A stretch of 24,000 bases of DNA from an uncultured Chloroflexota bacterium. Its GTDB lineage: Bacteria; Chloroflexota; UBA6077; CF-72. Where the stretch lies: NCBI GenBank assembly GCA_964435115.1, contig CAYSYM010000005.1, positions 68,224-92,223 of the forward strand, written 5' to 3'. The notes beneath the pieces are model-generated. The model did no database searches, was not told the DNA's origin, and was given only the letters and a program-made list of their open reading frames with translations. Made by a program: the position numbers and the translations under genes. Within the stretch, counting starts at the first letter, position 1. Every line of letters starts with the position of its first letter. Shown piece by piece: positions 6,011-17,603 of this stretch.

Positions 6011-7219
6011 ATGCAGCTCCCAACGCCGTTCACCCTCGCGCGCCGCGTCGCCGTCGTCATCGCCGTGGCCGCGTTCGCCGCCGCGTGCGCGCCGGCCGCG
6101 CAGCCGACGCCGACCACGGCGCCGGCCAAGCCGACCGAGGCGCCCAAGCCCACCGTGGCGGCCTCGCCCGCCGCGGCGCCGAGCCCCAGCCCGGCCGCCA
6201 AGCCGGCCGCGGCCGCCAGCCCGGCCGCGGGGGCCCCGGGCCCCGTGGCGACCAAGCCCGCGCAGAACCCCACCGACAAGCTCAGCCTGGTCTACGGCAG
6301 CCCGGTGACCCCGCCCAGCCTGGTCCACATGCCGCCGTACATCGCCCAGGCGATGGGCTTCTTCGACGAAGTCGGCTTGAACGTGGAGATCAAGTCCTTT
6401 GAAGGCGGCGTCGGGGCGCTGCGCGGTGGCATCTCGGGCGGCCTGGACATCGTCGGCACCAGCTCCGACCCGCTCTTCGCCGCCATCCAGCAGGGCGCGC
6501 CGGTCAAGGCCATCGGCACCTACGCGCCCAAGCTGAGCGTCGTCATGATGGCCAGGCCGGACATCAAGACGCCCCAGGACCTGAAGGGTCGCAAGCTGGG
6601 CATCCAGGAAGTCGGGGGCTTCAACGACGTCATGTCGCGCCTGGTGCTGCAGAGCGCCGGGATCTCGCCCAACGACGTGCAGTTCGTCACCGTGGCGACC
6701 GCCAACCGGGTGTCCTCGATGGTCCAGGGCCAGACCGAGGCGACCGTGCTGCACGCCGACCAGTACTACGCCGCGCTGGCCGCCGACCCCAACTTCAACG
6801 TCATGGCCCGCCTGTGGGAGGTCGTGCCGGACTGGTGGTACTCGGCGTTCGTCGCGTCGGACGACGTCATCAAGAACAAGCGCGAAGCGTTGGTCCGCTT
6901 CATGACGGCGGTCGTCAAGGCGCAGCGCTTCATGTACACGAACCCCGAGGAGACGAAGCGCATCGCGGTCGAGGAGACGAAGCGCAAGCCGGACGAGATC
7001 GAGAAGGCCTACGCCGACCTGGTCCGGGGCGGCATCTGGAGCGTCAACGACGGCATGCCGCGCAACATGGTCGAGTACACCGTCCGCAAGGAGATCGAGG
7101 TCGGCATCGTCCGGCCGGACAACCCGCCGACCTACGAGCAGATCGTGGACAAGTCGATCATCGACGAGGCCGTCAGGCGCAACGGTGGCGCCTGGACGGG
7201 CGACCCGCGCTGGTACTAG
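6011..7219 (+). CDS. ABC transporter substrate-binding lipoprotein, NMT1/THI5-like (NitT/TauT family)
   Basis: AAGGAG lies 8 nt upstream of ATG 6011. Signal peptide with lipobox (FAAAC) is followed by a ~65-aa Pro/Ala/Thr tether. The NMT1-like domain follows (LSLVYGSPVTPPSLVHMPPYIAQAMGFFDEVGLNVEIKSFEGG...). Confidence 0.85.
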   Translation: MQLPTPFTLARRVAVVIAVAAFAAACAPAAQPTPTTAPAKPTEAPKPTVAASPAAAPSPSPAAKPAAAASPAAGAPGPVATKPAQNPTDKLSLVYGSPVTPPSLVHMPPYIAQAMGFFDEVGLNVEIKSFEGGVGALRGGISGGLDIVGTSSDPLFAAIQQGAPVKAIGTYAPKLSVVMMARPDIKTPQDLKGRKLGIQEVGGFNDVMSRLVLQSAGISPNDVQFVTVATANRVSSMVQGQTEATVLHADQYYAALAADPNFNVMARLWEVVPDWWYSAFVASDDVIKNKREALVRFMTAVVKAQRFMYTNPEETKRIAVEETKRKPDEIEKAYADLVRGGIWSVNDGMPRNMVEYTVRKEIEVGIVRPDNPPTYEQIVDKSIIDEAVRRNGGAWTGDPRWY

Positions 7220-7224
7220 CGCGG

Positions 7225-7266
7225 GTGTCAGGCGTCAGGTATCGGGTATCGGGTGTTGGGTGGTGG
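7225..7266 (+). repeat. tandem heptamer array A (6 degenerate GTGTCGG units, 42 bp)
   Basis: Read directly: GTGTCAG GCGTCAG GTATCGG GTATCGG GTGTTGG GTGGTGG. It starts 6 nt after the SBP stop and runs into GGAGGGG (7267-7273), which serves as SD for GTG 7283. Confidence 0.9.
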
Positions 7267-12591: not shown

Positions 12592-13542
12592 ATGCCCCTA
12601 GATCCCCAGGCTGAGCGGTTCATCGCGGAGGCGGTCGCGGCCGGCGCGCGGCCCACCCACACGCTCTCCATCGCCGAGGCGCGCCAGGCGCTGCGCACGC
12701 GCCACGAGCAGGGTGGCGGCACGCCGCCGGCGATCGCCTCGGTCGTGGACCGCCAGGTCCCGGGGCCGGCCGGGTCGATCCGGGTACGGGTCTACACGCC
12801 GTTCGGTAGCGGCCCGTTTCCCGTGCTGGTCTACTTGCATGGTGGCGGCTGGCTGCGCGGCGACCTGGAGACGCACGACCGCCTGTGCCGCTACCTGGCC
12901 GACGGCGCCGCCTGCCTGGTGGTGTCGGTCGACTACCGCCTGGCGCCCGAGCACACGTTCCCGGCCCCGGTCGAGGACACTATGGCCGCCACCGAGTGGG
13001 TGGCCGCCCACGCCGCGGAGATCGGCGCTGATCCGACGCGGATCGCCGTCGGCGGCGACAGCGCGGGCGGCAACCTCGCCGCGGTCGTGGCGCTGCTGGC
13101 GCGCGAGCGAGGCCGGCCGCGGCTCGTCTTCCAGCTCCTCGTCTACCCCGTCACCAGCTACGCCTTCGACACCCCGTCCTACCACGAGAACGCCACCGGC
13201 TACGTGCTGACGAAGGCGGACATGGAGTGGTACTGGCACCACTACCTGCCCGACGCCGCCGCCGGGCGCGACGTGCGTGCCTCCCCGCTCCTGGCGGCGG
13301 ACCTCGGCCACCTCCCACCGGCGCTGGTGATCACCGCCGAGTACGACCCGCTGCGCGACGAGGGCGAGGCGTACGCCGCGCGACTCCGCGAGGCGGGTGT
13401 GCCGGCGACCACGCGTCGCTACCCTGGCATGATCCACGGCTTCTTCGCGCTCCCCGGTATCTTCGACCAGGGCCAGCGCGCGATTGACGAGGCGACCGCG
13501 GTCCTGCGCGCCAGCTTCACGCAGGTGGCCGCTCTTCCCTGA
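12592..13542 (+). CDS. alpha/beta hydrolase, hormone-sensitive-lipase-like (family IV) esterase
   Basis: GGAGG lies 5 nt upstream of ATG 12592. Oxyanion motif HGGGW, nucleophile elbow GDSAGG, acid DPLRDEG and His in MIHGF are in canonical order. Confidence 0.85.
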   Translation: MPLDPQAERFIAEAVAAGARPTHTLSIAEARQALRTRHEQGGGTPPAIASVVDRQVPGPAGSIRVRVYTPFGSGPFPVLVYLHGGGWLRGDLETHDRLCRYLADGAACLVVSVDYRLAPEHTFPAPVEDTMAATEWVAAHAAEIGADPTRIAVGGDSAGGNLAAVVALLARERGRPRLVFQLLVYPVTSYAFDTPSYHENATGYVLTKADMEWYWHHYLPDAAAGRDVRASPLLAADLGHLPPALVITAEYDPLRDEGEAYAARLREAGVPATTRRYPGMIHGFFALPGIFDQGQRAIDEATAVLRASFTQVAALP

Positions 13543-13562
13543 CCCACGGAGGTTCGCACCTG

Positions 13563-14555
13563 ATGGCTGTCACTACCCCCACCCCTGCGGCTGTCGTGCA
13601 GCCGACTCCCGACGAGCTGCAGGAGGCACTGCGGCTCATGCTCACCATCCGCCGGTTCGACGAGCAGGCGCTGGCGCTGTACCGGGCGGGCGAGATGCGC
13701 GGGACCACCCACCCGTACATCGGCATGGAAGCGGTGGGCGTGGGCGTGGTGGCGGCCCTCCGTCCAGACGACTACGTCACGAGCACCCATCGCGGTCACG
13801 GCCACACCATCGCCAAGGGCGGCGACATCAGGAAGATGATGGCCGAGCTGCTGGGCAAGGCGACCGGCTACTCGGGCGGGAAAGGCGGCAGCATGCACGT
13901 AGCCGACATGGACAAGCACATGCTGGGCGCCAACGGCATCGTCGGCGGCGGCATGGGGTTGGCCACAGGCGCCGCGCTGACCGCCAGGCTCCAGGGCGCC
14001 GACTCGGTCGCCGTGTGCTTCTTCGGCGACGGCGCGCTCAACCAGGGCATCCTGCACGAGACGAGCAACCTGGCGGCGATCTGGAAGCTGCCGGTCCTGT
14101 TCGTGTGTGAGAACAACCAATACGCCATGTCCACCCGGGCCGAGTGGAGCATAGCCGGCGGCGATCCGGCCGGGCGGGCCGCGGCCTACGGGCTGCCGGG
14201 CGTCACGGTCGACGGCATGGACTTCTTTGCGGTCCACGAGGCTGCCCACCGGCTCGTCGAACGGGCGCGGCGCGGCGAGGGGCCAGCGTACCTGGTCTGT
14301 AACACCTACCGCTACTATGGCCACCACGCCGGCGACCCGCTGAACTACCGGGGGAAGGATGAGGTGGACCGCTGGCGCGAGCAGGACCCGATTGCACGCC
14401 TGCAGCGGGCGCTCATCGAGCGCGGGGTGCTCAGCGCCGGCGAGGCGGCCGAGCTGGAGCAGCGCGTCGCAGCCGAGGTCGAAGCGGCGGTCGCGTTTGC
14501 CAAGGCCAGCCCGGAGCCGACGGTCGACCAACTGATGACCGACATCTACGCGTAG
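13563..14555 (+). CDS. 2-oxoacid (pyruvate/acetoin-type) dehydrogenase E1 component, alpha subunit (TPP-dependent)
   Basis: GGAGG lies 10 nt upstream of the start. Motifs: HRGHGHTIAKG, GGKGGSMH, and the TPP-binding GDGALNQG...VCENNQYAMST. Confidence 0.9.
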   Translation: MAVTTPTPAAVVQPTPDELQEALRLMLTIRRFDEQALALYRAGEMRGTTHPYIGMEAVGVGVVAALRPDDYVTSTHRGHGHTIAKGGDIRKMMAELLGKATGYSGGKGGSMHVADMDKHMLGANGIVGGGMGLATGAALTARLQGADSVAVCFFGDGALNQGILHETSNLAAIWKLPVLFVCENNQYAMSTRAEWSIAGGDPAGRAAAYGLPGVTVDGMDFFAVHEAAHRLVERARRGEGPAYLVCNTYRYYGHHAGDPLNYRGKDEVDRWREQDPIARLQRALIERGVLSAGEAAELEQRVAAEVEAAVAFAKASPEPTVDQLMTDIYA

Positions 14556-14579
14556 GTGTCGGGTGTCGGGTGTCGGGTG
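14556..14579 (+). repeat. tandem heptamer array B (3 perfect GTGTCGG + GTG)
   Basis: Begins at the base immediately after the E1alpha stop TAG (14553-14555). Runs into GAGGAG (14579-14584), the SD of the four-helix-bundle gene. Confidence 0.95.
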
Positions 14580-14593
14580 AGGAGATGCAGACG

Positions 14594-15001
14594 ATGACGG
14601 CGATGGCTGGCTACCGAGAGCTCCGGGTCTGGCAGGCAGCGATGGACCTGGTGGAGGGCGTCTACCGGCACACGCAGACCTTCCCGAAGCAGGAGGTCTA
14701 CGGACTGGCCGCGCAGCTTCAGCGGGCGGCGGTTTCTATCCCGGCCAACGTCGCGGAAGGACACGTCCGCGACCACCTCAAGGAGTACTTGCGGCACATC
14801 TCGGTGGCGCAGGGCTCGCTGGCCGAGCTCGAGACACAGCTCGAGATCGCCCGGCGACTGGGCTACGTCGAGCGAGCCGCCCATCGAGAGCTCCTCGAGC
14901 AGACGGCTTCCATCGGCAAGCAGCTCTATGCGCTGCGCAACTCTCTCGGCAAGAAGCTCAACACTGAATCGACGGCGCACGTGGAGCCCTCATGGCCGTA
15001 G
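14594..15001 (+). CDS. four helix bundle protein (23S rRNA intervening-sequence protein / S23p family, TIGR02436-like)
   Basis: Family-typical sequence [18 protein letters not shown]...[27 protein letters not shown]...[18 protein letters not shown]. In-frame starts are GTG 14570 and ATG 14585/14594/14603. ATG 14594 has the best spacing (9 nt) from GAGGAG. Stop TAG 14999-15001 overlaps the E1beta ATG 14992. Confidence 0.85.
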
Positions 15002-16026
15002 CAACTGCCCCCGACGCCCGACACCCGACACCCGACACCCGACACCTGACCTACGCTGAGGCGCTGAACGAGGCGCTGCGCGAGGAGATGCGCCGCGATC
15101 CCACCGTCTTCGTCCTGGGCGAGGACGTGGCCATCTGGGGCGGCGGCGGCATCTTCGGCGTCACCAAGGGGCTGGTGGACGAGTTCGGCCCCGAGCGGGT
15201 GCGGGACACGCCCATCTCTGAGGAGGCGATCGCCGCGGTCGCCATCGGCGCGGCGGCGACCGGCAGTCGGCCGGTGGCGGAGATCATGTACGTGGACTTC
15301 ATCGGCCTGGCGATGGAGCCGATCGTCAACCAGGCCGCCAAGCTGCGCTACATGTTCGGCGGCAAGGCGAAGGTACCGATGGTGCTCCGCGCCCAGGAGG
15401 GCGCCGGCCGCGGCAACGCCGCCCAGCACAGCCAGAGCCTGGAGGCGTGGTTCTGCCACATCCCCGGCCTCAAGGTGGTCACGCCCAGCACCCCCTACGA
15501 CGCCAAGGGGCTGCTCAAGACCGCCGTCCGCGACGACAACCCGGTCATCTTCCTCGAGCACAAGGCGCTCTACTTCACCAAGGGGTCGGTGCCCACGGAG
15601 GAGTACACGCTCCCGCTCGGGCTGGCCGACGTGAAGCGCGAGGGCCGGCACGTCACCGTCGTCGGCGTCCACACCATGGTGGGCAAGGCGCTCCAGGCGG
15701 CCGAGCGGCTCGCCGCGGAGGGCATCGAGCTGGAGGTGATCGACCCGCGCTCCCTGGTGCCGCTGGACGAGGAGACGATTGTCAGCTCGGTCAGGAAGAC
15801 GGGCCGGCTGATCGTGAGCCACGAGGCGTACACGCGGGGCGGCTACGGCGGCGAGGTCATCGCCCGCGTCGTCGAGTCCGCCTTCGACTACCTGGACGCG
15901 CCGCCCGTGCGCGTGTGCGCCCGGGACGTGCCCGTGCCCTACAGTGCCGTACTGGAGACGGCGGCCCTGCCGCAGGTCGACGACCTCGTCGCCGCGGCCC
16001 GGGCGCTGGTGGGGAAGGAGCTGTAG
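14992..16026 (+). CDS. 2-oxoacid dehydrogenase E1 component, beta subunit
   Basis: Conserved body [28 protein letters not shown]... with transketolase-like pyrimidine-binding and C-terminal domains. The only canonical start upstream of the conserved region is ATG 14992 (GGAG 5 nt upstream). The first ~18 codons ([18 protein letters not shown]) are encoded by the cassette end and heptamer array C. Confidence 0.85.
15011..15052 (-). repeat. tandem heptamer array C (CCGACAC orientation on + strand; 6 units, 42 bp, 4 perfect)
   Basis: Read directly: CCGACGC CCGACAC CCGACAC CCGACAC CCGACAC CTGACCT. It is the inverse orientation of arrays A and B and lies inside the E1beta ORF, translated as [14 protein letters not shown]. 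Confidence 0.95.
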
Positions 16027-16031
16027 CGTCC

Positions 16032-17603
16032 ATGGCGACGCCGGTGACGATGCCGATGCTCGGGCTGACGATGGAGGAGGGCACGGTTGCGCAGTGGCTG
16101 AAGGGCGAGGGCGAGGCGGTGCGGAAGGACGAGCCGCTCCTCACCGTCGAGATCGACAAGGGCACGGTCGAGGTGCCCGCGCCGGCGAGCGGCGTGCTGC
16201 GGCGGATCGTCGTCCAGCCCGGCCAGACGGTGCCGATCAAGACGCTCATCGCGGAGATCGCCGCGCCCGGCGAGGCGGGTGAAGGGGCGCCCGCGGGCCC
16301 GGCGTCTGTTCTGCAGCAGACGGCTCCGGCCGGGGTGGCCCCGGCGCCAGCGGTCCCGCCCGACACCGGCGCTCCGCCGAGCCCGGCGCAGGTGGCCGCC
16401 GCCACGGTCGCCTCCGCCCCGCCAGCCGCCACCGTGGCCCCGACACCCGATACCCGATACCCGGCACCCGAGACCCGGCTGTTCGCGTCGCCGCGGGCGC
16501 GCGGGCGCGCCGGCGCGCTGGGGATCGAGCTGGCGCTGGTCCAGGGGACCGGCCCGCGCGGACGCATCGTCGAGGAGGATGTGCTCGCCTTCGCCCAGGC
16601 GGCCCCGGCTCAGCCAGTGGGCCAGAGCCTGACGGCACGATTGGGCGCAGGTGGGGCCCACTTGCCGAGCGCCCTCGGGAGTCAGCGCGTAGCGCCTGGC
16701 GCCGAGCCGTCGCGGGTCCCGGCGACGCCGCTCGCCCGACGGATGGCGCTGGAGCACGGGGTGGCGTTGAGCGCGGTCCAGGGCACCGGTCCGGGTGGGC
16801 GCGTCACCCACGAGGACGTGCTGCGCGCGGCTGAGGCGCGCCTGGCGGGCACGGGCGCCGAGGCGGGGGCCACGGCCCCTGCGCCGGCACCCGAGACCCT
16901 GCACCCGGTCCCTGTCGAGCCGCTCAGCCGCCTGCGGCGGATCACCGCCGAGCGCATGGCCGCCTCGGCGCGCAGCGTGGCCCGGGTCACGCTGTTCCTC
17001 GAGGCGGACCTGACCGAGGCGGCCCGGTTCCGGCGCCAGCTCGCCCCCGAGCTCGCGCGGCTCGGCGTGGCGAAGCTGCCGTGGGACGCGCTCTTCGCCA
17101 AGGCGGCCGGCCTGGCGCTGGCCGAGCACCCGGGCGTGAACGCCCAGTGGGTCGACGGCCAGGGGCTGCGCCGGCTCGCCACGGTCAACGTGGGGGTGGC
17201 GGTGGCGCTGGAGCCCGAGGGGCTCGTGGTGCCGGTGCTGCGCCAGGCCGACACGCGGTCGCTGCGCGAGCTGGCGGCTGACGTCCTGGCGCTGGCGGAC
17301 CGGGCGCGGCACAATCGCCTGCGCCCGGGCGAGATGCAGGGGGCGACCTTCACCATCACCAACCTCGGCCAGTACCGCGTCGACGGCTTCACGCCGATCG
17401 TGAATCCGCCTGAGACGGCCATCCTGGGGGTCGGGCGCATCGCCGACAAGCCTGCCGTCGTCGACGGCCAGCTCCAGGTCCGCACCCAGTGCACGCTGTC
17501 GCTCAGCTTCGACCACCGGGTCGTGGACGGCGCGCCCGCCGCCGCCTTCCTCGCGCGCCTGGCCGAGCTGCTCGAGCGGCCGTACGCGCTCCTGGGGCTC
17601 TGA
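16032..17603 (+). CDS. 2-oxoacid dehydrogenase E2 (dihydrolipoamide acyltransferase)
   Basis: ATG 16032 follows AAGGAG. Lipoyl domain with TVEIDKGTVEVPAP (Lys codon 16158-16160). Two peripheral-subunit-binding-like segments. Catalytic domain ends with SLSFDHRVVDGA. The 718-aa track ORF from 15447 is an upstream out-of-gene extension. Confidence 0.9.
   Translation: MATPVTMPMLGLTMEEGTVAQWLKGEGEAVRKDEPLLTVEIDKGTVEVPAPASGVLRRIVVQPGQTVPIKTLIAEIAAPGEAGEGAPAGPASVLQQTAPAGVAPAPAVPPDTGAPPSPAQVAAATVASAPPAATVAPTPDTRYPAPETRLFASPRARGRAGALGIELALVQGTGPRGRIVEEDVLAFAQAAPAQPVGQSLTARLGAGGAHLPSALGSQRVAPGAEPSRVPATPLARRMALEHGVALSAVQGTGPGGRVTHEDVLRAAEARLAGTGAEAGATAPAPAPETLHPVPVEPLSRLRRITAERMAASARSVARVTLFLEADLTEAARFRRQLAPELARLGVAKLPWDALFAKAAGLALAEHPGVNAQWVDGQGLRRLATVNVGVAVALEPEGLVVPVLRQADTRSLRELAADVLALADRARHNRLRPGEMQGATFTITNLGQYRVDGFTPIVNPPETAILGVGRIADKPAVVDGQLQVRTQCTLSLSFDHRVVDGAPAAAFLARLAELLERPYALLGL
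16440..16481 (-). repeat. tandem heptamer array D (CCGACAC orientation; 6 degenerate units, 42 bp) inside the E2 linker
   Basis: Read directly: CCGACAC CCGATAC CCGATAC CCGGCAC CCGAGAC CCGGCTG. It is in frame and translated as PTPDTRYPAPETRL. Confidence 0.9.

Follow-up and report, generated by a model that had tools for sequence, protein, structure and literature searches.

A four-helix-bundle gene between inverted heptamer arrays in a Chloroflexota dehydrogenase operon, one case of a recurrent pairing of PF05635 genes with heptamer repeats

Introduction

What is a gene of the "23S rRNA IVS protein" family, named after the intervening sequences (IVSs) of 23S rRNA, doing in the middle of a protein-coding operon, enclosed by two perfectly complementary arrays of a tandem heptamer? 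The question is raised by a 24,000-nt stretch of DNA from an uncultured Chloroflexota bacterium (contig CAYSYM010000005.1, positions 68,224 to 92,223), here called the window, in which a four-helix-bundle (4HB) gene lies between the genes for the E1alpha and E1beta subunits of a 2-oxoacid dehydrogenase. The original prediction, made from these letters, saw an IVS-like cassette, possibly mobile or processed as RNA. We find that positions 14554-15047 are a gene-bearing copy of a widespread two-part system, in which a 4HB gene sits in a heptamer hairpin, oriented in sense within a transcribed housekeeping operon, and gene-less arrays are dispersed over the genome. The architecture and its generality, the co-variation of heptamer unit and protein, the cognate dispersed arrays, the separate origin of the two arms and the sense orientation are all direct observations. 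Positions are numbered along the whole stretch throughout; G000 denotes the window's genome, other G-numbers denote relatives or other genomes, and L-numbers denote loci.

Results

The gene and its arms in the window

G000 is a metagenome-assembled genome (MAG) of 3.77 Mb in 105 contigs, with 71% GC and a completeness of 90%. The locus comprises the following features.

13563..14555, + strand: E1 alpha subunit of a pyruvate-type 2-oxoacid dehydrogenase (PF00676, 6.4e-91)
14554..14579, + strand: left (G-rich) arm, AG + (GTGTCGG)x3 + GTG, perfect complement of 15022-15047
14579..14584, + strand: likely Shine-Dalgarno sequence of the 4HB gene, GAGGAG, 9 nt before ATG 14594 and immediately 3' of the left arm
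14594..15001, + strand: 4HB gene, PF05635 / TIGR02436 "23S rRNA IVS protein", by profile matches
14992..16026, + strand: E1 beta subunit (PF02779, PF02780; PRK09212 391.6 bits, over the cut-off), in frame +2 relative to the 4HB gene
15010..15047, + strand: right (C-rich) array, CCCGACG + (CCCGACA)x4 + CC, from the repeat search; translated as E1beta residues ~7-19

The repeat search returned an inverted repeat of 26 nt (14554-14579 and 15022-15047), 100% complementary, with 442 nt between the arms. The perfect complementarity of the arrays had been predicted correctly; their length, put at 24 bp, was 2 nt short. On the left, the array stands where it had been placed: the sequence reads TAG (14553-14555, adjoining the arm and sharing 2 nt with it) and then (GTGTCGG)x3+GTG (14556-14579), whose first base is directly 3' of the E1alpha stop. 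On the right, the arm does end where the conserved LTYAEAL core of E1beta begins, but the E1beta coding sequence (CDS) starts upstream, at ATG 14992 (MAVATAP...), overlapping the 4HB stop (ATGGCCGTAG), a TAG at 14999-15001 that coincides with E1beta codons 3-4. Orthologues of E1beta from other genera and families have a MAV(A/P) start, 13-21 variable residues and then the conserved (I/L)TYAEAL. Since the MAV(A) start is conserved, the ribosome-binding site (RBS) and start codon of E1beta lie inside the loop, and the right arm (15022-15047) is translated as E1beta codons 11-19, within an N-terminal extension. The two arrays are unequal in length, with 3.4 units on the left and ~5.3 on the right (15010-15047). 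Their heptamer, GGTGTCG / CGACACC, is a member of the (GGGTRTY)n family of G000. E1alpha itself scores 379.6 bits against TIGR03182, slightly below the cut-off.

The gene in the loop has an open frame from 14570 to 15001, with ATG 14594 or 14603 as likely start; the former lies behind GAGGAG (14579-14584), which by its position likely acts as the Shine-Dalgarno sequence. The assignment to a TIGR02436-like four-helix-bundle family was borne out by profile searches, the product matching PF05635 (1.5e-35, 122.1 bits, cut-off 33.8), TIGR02436 (1.2e-34, 118.9 bits, cut-off 24) and NF008911 (136 bits). Its closest solved relative is PDB 2GSC (XCC0516 of Xanthomonas, 5 chains), with an E-value of 1.8e-28 over residues 5-120; by homology to 2GSC, the window protein may form a pentameric four-helix-bundle ring.

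Bracketing of this strength is rarely met by chance: among 400 random 315-bp pseudo-genes in G000, two had a bracketing inverted-repeat score of at least 14, the maximum being 17, as compared with 26 in the window. Nor is the hairpin locus an artifact of a single assembly, since Logan contigs from three runs of one sample span 14300-15300 without differences. This region is present in the DNA runs of one mine-drainage sample, with tiny shares elsewhere, and no RNA run was found to contain it. In the reads of four DNA runs from one mine-drainage sample, neither the arrays nor the cassette showed variation in copy number or in presence and absence. No Rfam family, including those of rRNA, matched within 13500-16100.

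As a separate observation, the 3.8-Mb genome holds eight E1beta-like genes, which makes the window operon one of several 2-oxoacid dehydrogenase paralogues. Such paralogy may relax the constraint on this operon.

The same architecture across the family

We collected 28 PF05635 genes from 40 relatives and, by search with an 8-sequence alignment, 80 from >10 phyla, giving 107 non-redundant family genes. With the bracketing threshold again set at a score of at least 14, 95 of the 107 are enclosed by an inverted repeat, and in 93 of those the repeat has period 7; control pseudo-genes shifted by 900 nt in the same loci were bracketed in 2 of 193 cases. Arms have a median length of 31 nt (interquartile range 29.5-35), and the median loop measures 413 nt. 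In 81 of the 95 loci it is the 5' arm that is rich in G, and the right arm begins a median of 4 nt after the stop codon. The encoded proteins have a median pI of 8.8 and matched no PADLOC defense model. Of nine further family genes of relatives, examined separately, seven are likewise enclosed by inverted arms of period 7, with a unit particular to every gene; the other two have just weak, nonperiodic repeats. G000 contains just one other PF05635 gene, and this too lies between inverted heptamer-like arrays, of a different, AT-rich unit (AGGAAAT type). That other 4HB genes might be flanked by inverted arrays, as the original prediction had proposed to check, is thus seen both in the second gene of G000 and in 93 of the 107 sampled genes.

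Genes next to the cassettes are nearly always co-oriented with the 4HB gene (upstream 53 versus 1, downstream 45 versus 6). Host operons include carA|carB (three times), gyrB|gyrA, ftsW|murG and yicC|gmk. This co-orientation, together with insertion at conserved-operon sites such as E1alpha|E1beta, fits a dependence on host transcription.

At 10 of the 95 loci, a long host open reading frame (ORF) of 530-1000 aa runs uninterrupted from one side of the cassette to the other, and in every case it is the +2 frame of the 4HB gene that is used (L001:1334-1858, corresponding to G000:C3 at ~126.5-127.1 kb, and L028, L064, L076, L077, L083, L100, L115, L133 and L137); only 1 antisense frame is open. 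Of the hosts, eight out of ten code for DNA methyltransferases or restriction-modification (R-M) proteins (DUF1156/HmaB-like, N6_N4_Mtase, Eco57I/MmeI/Type ISP), some of them in genomes of 40-43% GC. Across all loci, frame +2 of the 4HB gene contains 2.96 stops as against 4.42 expected and is stop-free in 20% of cases as against 3.7%. Since 7 is not divisible by 3, slippage within an arm would switch the read-through host genes.

An outlier in size is L112:1200-2060, from a Planctomycetota MAG, where the 4HB gene is flanked by ~25 GGACGGT-type units per arm instead of the usual 4-5 (aligned length ~180 nt, score 124).

Cognate arrays elsewhere in the genome

The heptamer unit varies from gene to gene, even within a single genome, and it does so along with the protein. 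That is, the share of gene pairs with a common arm 7-mer rises from 2% at <50% protein identity to 20% at 60-70% and 33% at 70-80%, and in a Mantel test of unit against protein similarity, 0 of 500 permutations gave a correlation as high as that observed. Composition and shared ancestry could inflate this correlation, a point to which we return below.

Genomes were then searched for dispersed arrays with a pattern of 3 units and up to 1 mismatch. In 11 of 12 cases, a genome with a gene of a given unit also has arrays of that unit, ten of them with tens to hundreds scattered over the genome and one with arrays near the gene only.

GGGTRTY, G000: 90 hits at ~46 places; 0-4 in 39 relatives besides G005
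GGGTRTY, G005: 36 hits; 0 in eight other genomes of its genus
CGAGAGG, G014: 66 hits; 0-1 in others
GAGTAGC, G030: 50 hits; 0 in others save G032
GAGTAGC, G032 (similar arms): 5 hits; 0 in others save G030
GAGTCCT, G013: 323 hits; 0 in others (the reversed-pattern control is invalid here, the reverse being a rotation of the unit)
CAGAAST, G006: 27 hits; 0-1 in others, including congeners
TGGGANY, G009: 141 hits; 0-1 in others
GGGAAYC, Xanthomonas MAG: 37 hits, counted in this genome only
GGGAGTC, Phormidium isolate: 108 hits; 0 in others
TCAGTTN, Muribaculaceae: 118 hits; 0 in others save a Phycisphaerae MAG
TCAGTTN-type arms, Phycisphaerae MAG: 9 hits, all close to its gene

Some genomes contain several gene/unit pairs side by side, with dispersed arrays for each. 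The one relative that shares the GGGTRTY family with G000, G005, carries a 4HB gene with GGGTGTT arms whose product, at 65% identity, is the closest to the window protein among the relatives compared. Overall, the cognate rule is strong, not absolute.

Gene-less arrays and short hairpins typically stand at stop codons, with the G-rich strand in the mRNA, or at start codons, with the C-rich strand. Many arrays are solo. Three more of the ~46 places in G000 lie inside the window, where arrays of the same family include the following.

7223..7264, + strand: G-rich array of six GGGTRTC-like units, beginning 3 nt 3' of the TAG stop of ORF 6011-7219
16439..16469, + strand: CCCGACA CCCGATA CCCGATA ... 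within the E2 gene, in the part coding for the linker that precedes the E3-binding domain

Some 70 nt downstream of the first of these there is a degenerate C-rich partner; the second is translated as the linker peptide …PTPDTRYPAPETR….

At G000:C22:51694-52149, a divergent intergenic region, (CCCGAYA)n occurs in the sense strand of each gene, immediately upstream of the RBS or start codon. This placement follows the rule reported for Xanthomonas and Nostoc.

On the origin of the arms

For the origin of the arms we compared E1alpha|E1beta junctions at loci L032-L052. Empty sites, which the original prediction had suggested looking for, exist in six relatives (G003, G004, G006, G014, G016 and G032), where the two genes meet in a tight ATGA or GTGA overlap. 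G005 shows the geometry seen in the window, except that the 4HB gene is missing and both arms are made of another unit: its E1alpha stop TAG is followed by GTGTTGG-type units, a ~55-nt loop with the E1beta start, and CCCAACA units inside the E1beta N-terminus. Short heptamer-array hairpins of other units occupy the junction in G030, G019 and G038, whereas the hairpin of G034 is plain, with no clear period. G038 is an unpublished genome, drawn upon for its junction and for no other result. The original picture of a clean array-gene-array insert does not survive this comparison: the E1beta start is in the loop, the right arm is within the E1beta CDS, and G005 has arms and no gene.

Another spacer, in the genus of G005, behaves in the same way. 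It measures 26 nt in G003 and carries a CAGAAST hairpin in G006 and a GAGTGRG hairpin in G005, whose genome has another 4HB gene with GAGTGRG as its unit. In either case, the G-arm directly follows the stop codon, the C-arm ends 0-3 nt before the start codon, and the ancestral spacer core is found in the loop. At two loci, then, host sequence separates the arms, so these do not represent the termini of a single insertion. They flank sequence that was already in place when they formed, and the loop can be with or without the 4HB gene. Neither the E1alpha|E1beta locus nor the other spacer showed a target-site duplication. Intrastrand template switching would yield perfect complementarity, a concerted change of both arms and the apparent overwriting of the variable E1beta N-terminus at unchanged length, and is plausibly how the arms originate.

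Three further observations concern these sites. Within this order, E1alpha|E1beta is a recurrent hairpin site, with heptamer arrays in G000, G005, G030, G038 and G019 and a plain hairpin in G034. The E1alpha stop is TAG at all hairpin-bearing junctions, in contrast with the ATGA/GTGA overlap of the empty ones. Finally, at L158 and L163, both of G007, a long palindromic element with CGCATCGCTGCGCTCGCTCC and its complement stands where congeners carry heptamer hairpins or nothing, an unrelated REP-like (repetitive extragenic palindromic) repeat family in the same kind of niche.

The stem in the transcript

The pairing proposed at the outset is recovered in the predicted fold. The region 14530-15070 folds at -262 kcal/mol (z = -5.06), and the 26-bp terminal stem is present in both the minimum free energy (MFE) and centroid structures. 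G000 also encodes RNase III. Yet, with the E1beta start in the loop and the right arm in the CDS, cleavage by RNase III would leave the E1beta mRNA without its start codon. Because this would sever the E1beta message, constitutive excision of the IVS type is unlikely at the window locus, and so is a clean mobile cassette processed there by RNase III. Mismatches in 96 arm pairs showed no wobble bias (G.U 108 versus A.C 129, p = 0.19); in the lack of a G.U excess, nothing points to selection at the RNA level only.

Likeness to known systems

The 23S rRNA IVS of Coxiella burnetii is ~430 nt long, has a ~28-bp terminal stem that is cut by RNase III at the first heptamer, and carries 2-3 tandem GACAGAT units, variable in number, in its 5' arm next to the ORF start (PMC4990558). 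The window has the same build, with a long enclosing stem, an S23p-type ORF and tandem heptamers in the 5' arm, so that the IVS-like reading of the original prediction is well founded at the level of architecture. More generally, ORF-bearing 23S IVSs (Coxiella, Leptospira; S23p ORF) share with the window the protein family in the loop, the terminal inverted-repeat stem and the sense orientation in a highly transcribed host. They differ in that the window's host is a protein-coding operon, with no rRNA in question, whereas IVSs occupy helix 25 or 45 of 23S rRNA; in that one window arm is translated host CDS, where RNase III excision would be harmful; and in that genome-wide cognate arrays are undescribed for IVSs.

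A different parallel is offered by RAYT genes and their REP and REPIN sequences. A RAYT gene is present in single copy, flanked by a short inverted repeat that is dispersed over the genome in tens to hundreds of extragenic hairpin-forming copies. The repeat families are genome-specific and match the copies that flank the gene, and several gene/repeat pairs may coexist per genome. The window behaves alike, its arms being of the (GGGTRTY)n type found at ~46 places in G000, and so do ten further gene/unit pairs. Unlike a RAYT, the 4HB protein lacks HUH/Y1 motifs of the IS200-like kind, its only Pfam matches being PF05635 and bAvd, and its repeats come as tandem arrays of heptamers, variable in length, where a REPIN is a fixed palindrome. 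An insertion sequence or miniature inverted-repeat transposable element (MITE), defined as a contiguous insert bounded by terminal inverted repeats with a target-site duplication, is not what the window locus shows.

Heptamer arrays as such have been described before. In Xanthomonas (GGGAATC) and Nostoc/Anabaena (GGGGAYT, TTTTGAA), they lie mostly between co-oriented ORFs, with the G-rich strand <=50 bp after stops and the complementary strand <=50 bp before starts; many form convergent inverted pairs, they are transcribed, their length varies among close relatives, they have no assigned function, and GGGNNNN units form G-quadruplexes (G4) in vitro (PMC4692102). The window arrays share the period of 7 at ORF ends, the co-oriented genes and the convergent inverted pairs. 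A TAACTGA heptamer repeat is known from Beggiatoaceae and is abundant also in cyanobacteria and Bacteroidetes (PMC4679880), and for the heptamer repeats in Nostoc promoters an as yet unidentified interacting partner has been invoked (bioRxiv 10.1101/2022.06.06.494920). While those papers name no associated protein, the present arrays are tied to PF05635 genes, and units of the Xanthomonas type and the TAACTGA type form the arms of two sampled 4HB genes, L082 and L076. On a related note, the arms of L076 (Phycisphaerae MAG) and L123 (Muribaculaceae) are TCAGTTN, which on the opposite strand reads NAACTGA and covers TAACTGA.

To Avd, the accessory protein of diversity-generating retroelements (DGRs), the likeness is remote: bAvd (PF22296) is matched at 1.9e-07 with 32 bits (cut-off 40) and NF033474 with 31.9 bits (cut-off 80). 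Both proteins are basic four-helix bundles, and the solved homologue of the window protein, 2GSC, is a pentameric ring (5 chains), as is Avd. In contrast to a DGR, there are no template/variable repeats, and a search of G000 and G030 turned up no reverse transcriptase. We accordingly rejected a telomerase-like writing of the repeats by a reverse transcriptase: despite their many arrays, neither G000 nor G030 (MAGs 90% and 80% complete) has a PF00078 match. Also rejected was a role of the arrays as three-frame stop-codon terminators, as the GTGTCGG-type units of the window contain no stop in any frame.

A literature search found no description of a general link between PF05635/TIGR02436/S23p genes and heptamers in the searchable literature. 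The earlier statement that no element with heptamer-array termini had been described stands for this general rule and falls short for a single IVS, the Coxiella one, whose heptamers had been mentioned. On what the original prediction had named as speaking against itself, the second 4HB gene of G000 and the family survey both come out in its favor.

Discussion

Which account, then, explains a 4HB gene in a heptamer hairpin? We favor, at about even chances and largely by analogy, a RAYT/REPIN-like partnership between the PF05635 4HB protein and its cognate heptamer arrays. A basic pentameric 4HB ring would recognize arrays of its own heptamer; five subunits times 7 nt would make 35 nt, which is near the median arm of 31 nt. 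The protein would be needed for the spread or upkeep of its arrays, by the same logic that ties a REP-flanked RAYT gene to the REPINs of its genome. The two arms would form independently, with their complementarity maintained in the DNA itself, plausibly by template switching within a strand, and the 4HB gene would move into and out of the loop of a pre-existing hairpin. In a transcript, the 26-bp stem may form when the region is untranslated, and RNase III would then be able to cut it, as it does in 23S IVSs; since cutting at the window locus would inactivate the E1beta mRNA, it could there be at most a side effect or a down-regulating device.

Several points weigh against such a partnership. 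Binding, processing and mobility are read from association, the 5 x 7 = 35 nt argument is numerology so far, and a four-helix bundle is not known to have nuclease or recombinase activity. The recurrent placement of two arms at ORF borders in independent lineages is left without explanation. As said above, composition and shared ancestry could contribute to the protein/unit correlation. In a search of G000, the AGGAAAT unit of its second cassette had no dispersed copies. Conversely, no 4HB gene turned up in G007, G017, G025 and G028, all of which have (TCAGCNN)n arrays, and G024 has 367 (TCAGCNN)n hits and no gene with such arms among those found; most of these genomes are MAGs, which break at repeats, although G017 is rated 100% complete. 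On these exceptions we rejected the cognate rule in its strict form.

One rival keeps closest to the original prediction and holds that the arrays exist for the sake of an RNA stem: they would pair in the polycistronic transcript, and RNase III would excise the 4HB segment, tuning or uncoupling E1alpha and E1beta. The perfect 26-bp stem in both MFE and centroid structures (z = -5.06), the RNase III gene of G000, the identically built Coxiella IVS that is cut in its stem at the first heptamer and the near-constant co-orientation of cassettes with host genes all suit this idea. So does the median arm of 31 nt, RNase III requiring roughly 20 bp of duplex. What makes us regard it as unlikely is the cost to the host, in that a cut would destroy the E1beta message, whose start lies in the loop and whose codons 11-19 form the right arm, and the state of the transcript, in that translating ribosomes would hold open a stem spanning 442 nt and the host ORFs open across the whole cassette at 10 loci argue that it remains in translated mRNA. 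Solo dispersed arrays and the period of 7 are left unexplained by it as well. The harm of an RNase III cut, the missing wobble bias in the 96 arm pairs (G.U 108, A.C 129) and the read-through host ORFs together led us to rank IVS-type excision below the protein-array partnership.

Two further accounts were weighed. If the arrays were terminal inverted repeats of a conventional small transposon or MITE, inserted as one unit and reduced to gene-less hairpins by internal deletion, one would understand the inverted termini, the empty sites in relatives, the co-inheritance of arms and gene across phyla, the AT-rich and foreign-looking cassette within a 71% GC genome, and the burst-like restriction of array families to single genomes in a genus. 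This model is nonetheless contradicted, for the arms at two loci, by the conserved host sequence between them (the MAVA start of E1beta and the ancestral core of the other spacer); moreover, no target-site duplication was seen there, the element has no transposase, its protein being a 4-helix bundle, the arms differ in copy number (3.4 versus 5.3 units) and many arrays are solo. We consider it very improbable. Alternatively, the arrays may be autonomous, maintained by slippage, by G-quadruplex or i-motif formation or as sites of another factor, with the 4HB gene a passenger that survives best in hairpin loops. Heptamer arrays have indeed been described without the gene in Xanthomonas, Nostoc and Beggiatoaceae, some genomes have arrays and no 4HB gene found, the E1alpha|E1beta hairpin of G005 is without one, and GGGNNNN units can form G4. 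A pure passenger is hard to square with the statistics, however, as such hairpins enclose 93 of 107 family genes and just 2 of 193 controls, the unit follows protein similarity, and single genomes contain several orthogonal gene/unit pairs that each have dispersed arrays of their own. Furthermore, the arms of the Xanthomonas 4HB gene are of the genus-typical GGGAAYC, and units such as AGGATTC, CGTGAAA and GAGTAGC cannot form G4. These leave the autonomous account improbable; G-quadruplexes as a general explanation were rejected outright, many units having no G-runs.

The protein-array partnership can be carried further. Possibly, though on balance we would not expect it, PF05635 proteins are sequence-specific rings that bind heptamer arrays and write, spread or protect their own arrays, constituting a new self-propagating repeat system in >10 phyla whose target sites would be ORF borders, tolerant rRNA helices (the IVSs) and, in frame, DNA methyltransferase genes. 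We see a substantial chance that the protein and its repeats together form a system of a new kind.

There are practical consequences as well. Heptamer arrays break MAG assemblies, they are translated as linker peptides in enzymes such as E1beta and E2, and cassettes inside methyltransferase genes will be misannotated as split genes.

The window element is one case of a broad regularity, an IVS-type element in mRNA with genome-wide cognate arrays, of which we found no earlier description. The rule is that the gene nearly always lies between inverted arrays of one heptamer and that arrays of the same heptamer are scattered over the genome. It joins two old puzzles, the 4HB ORF of 23S rRNA IVSs and the excess of heptamer arrays in Xanthomonas, cyanobacteria, Beggiatoaceae and others, and thereby offers a candidate partner of the arrays and a possible function of the 4HB protein, with Xanthomonas campestris (XCC0516, structure 2GSC) and Nostoc as tractable organisms. 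If true, the self-propagating ring would explain the ORF of the IVSs, the bacterial excess of heptamer simple sequence repeats and the unidentified partner of the cyanobacterial repeats.

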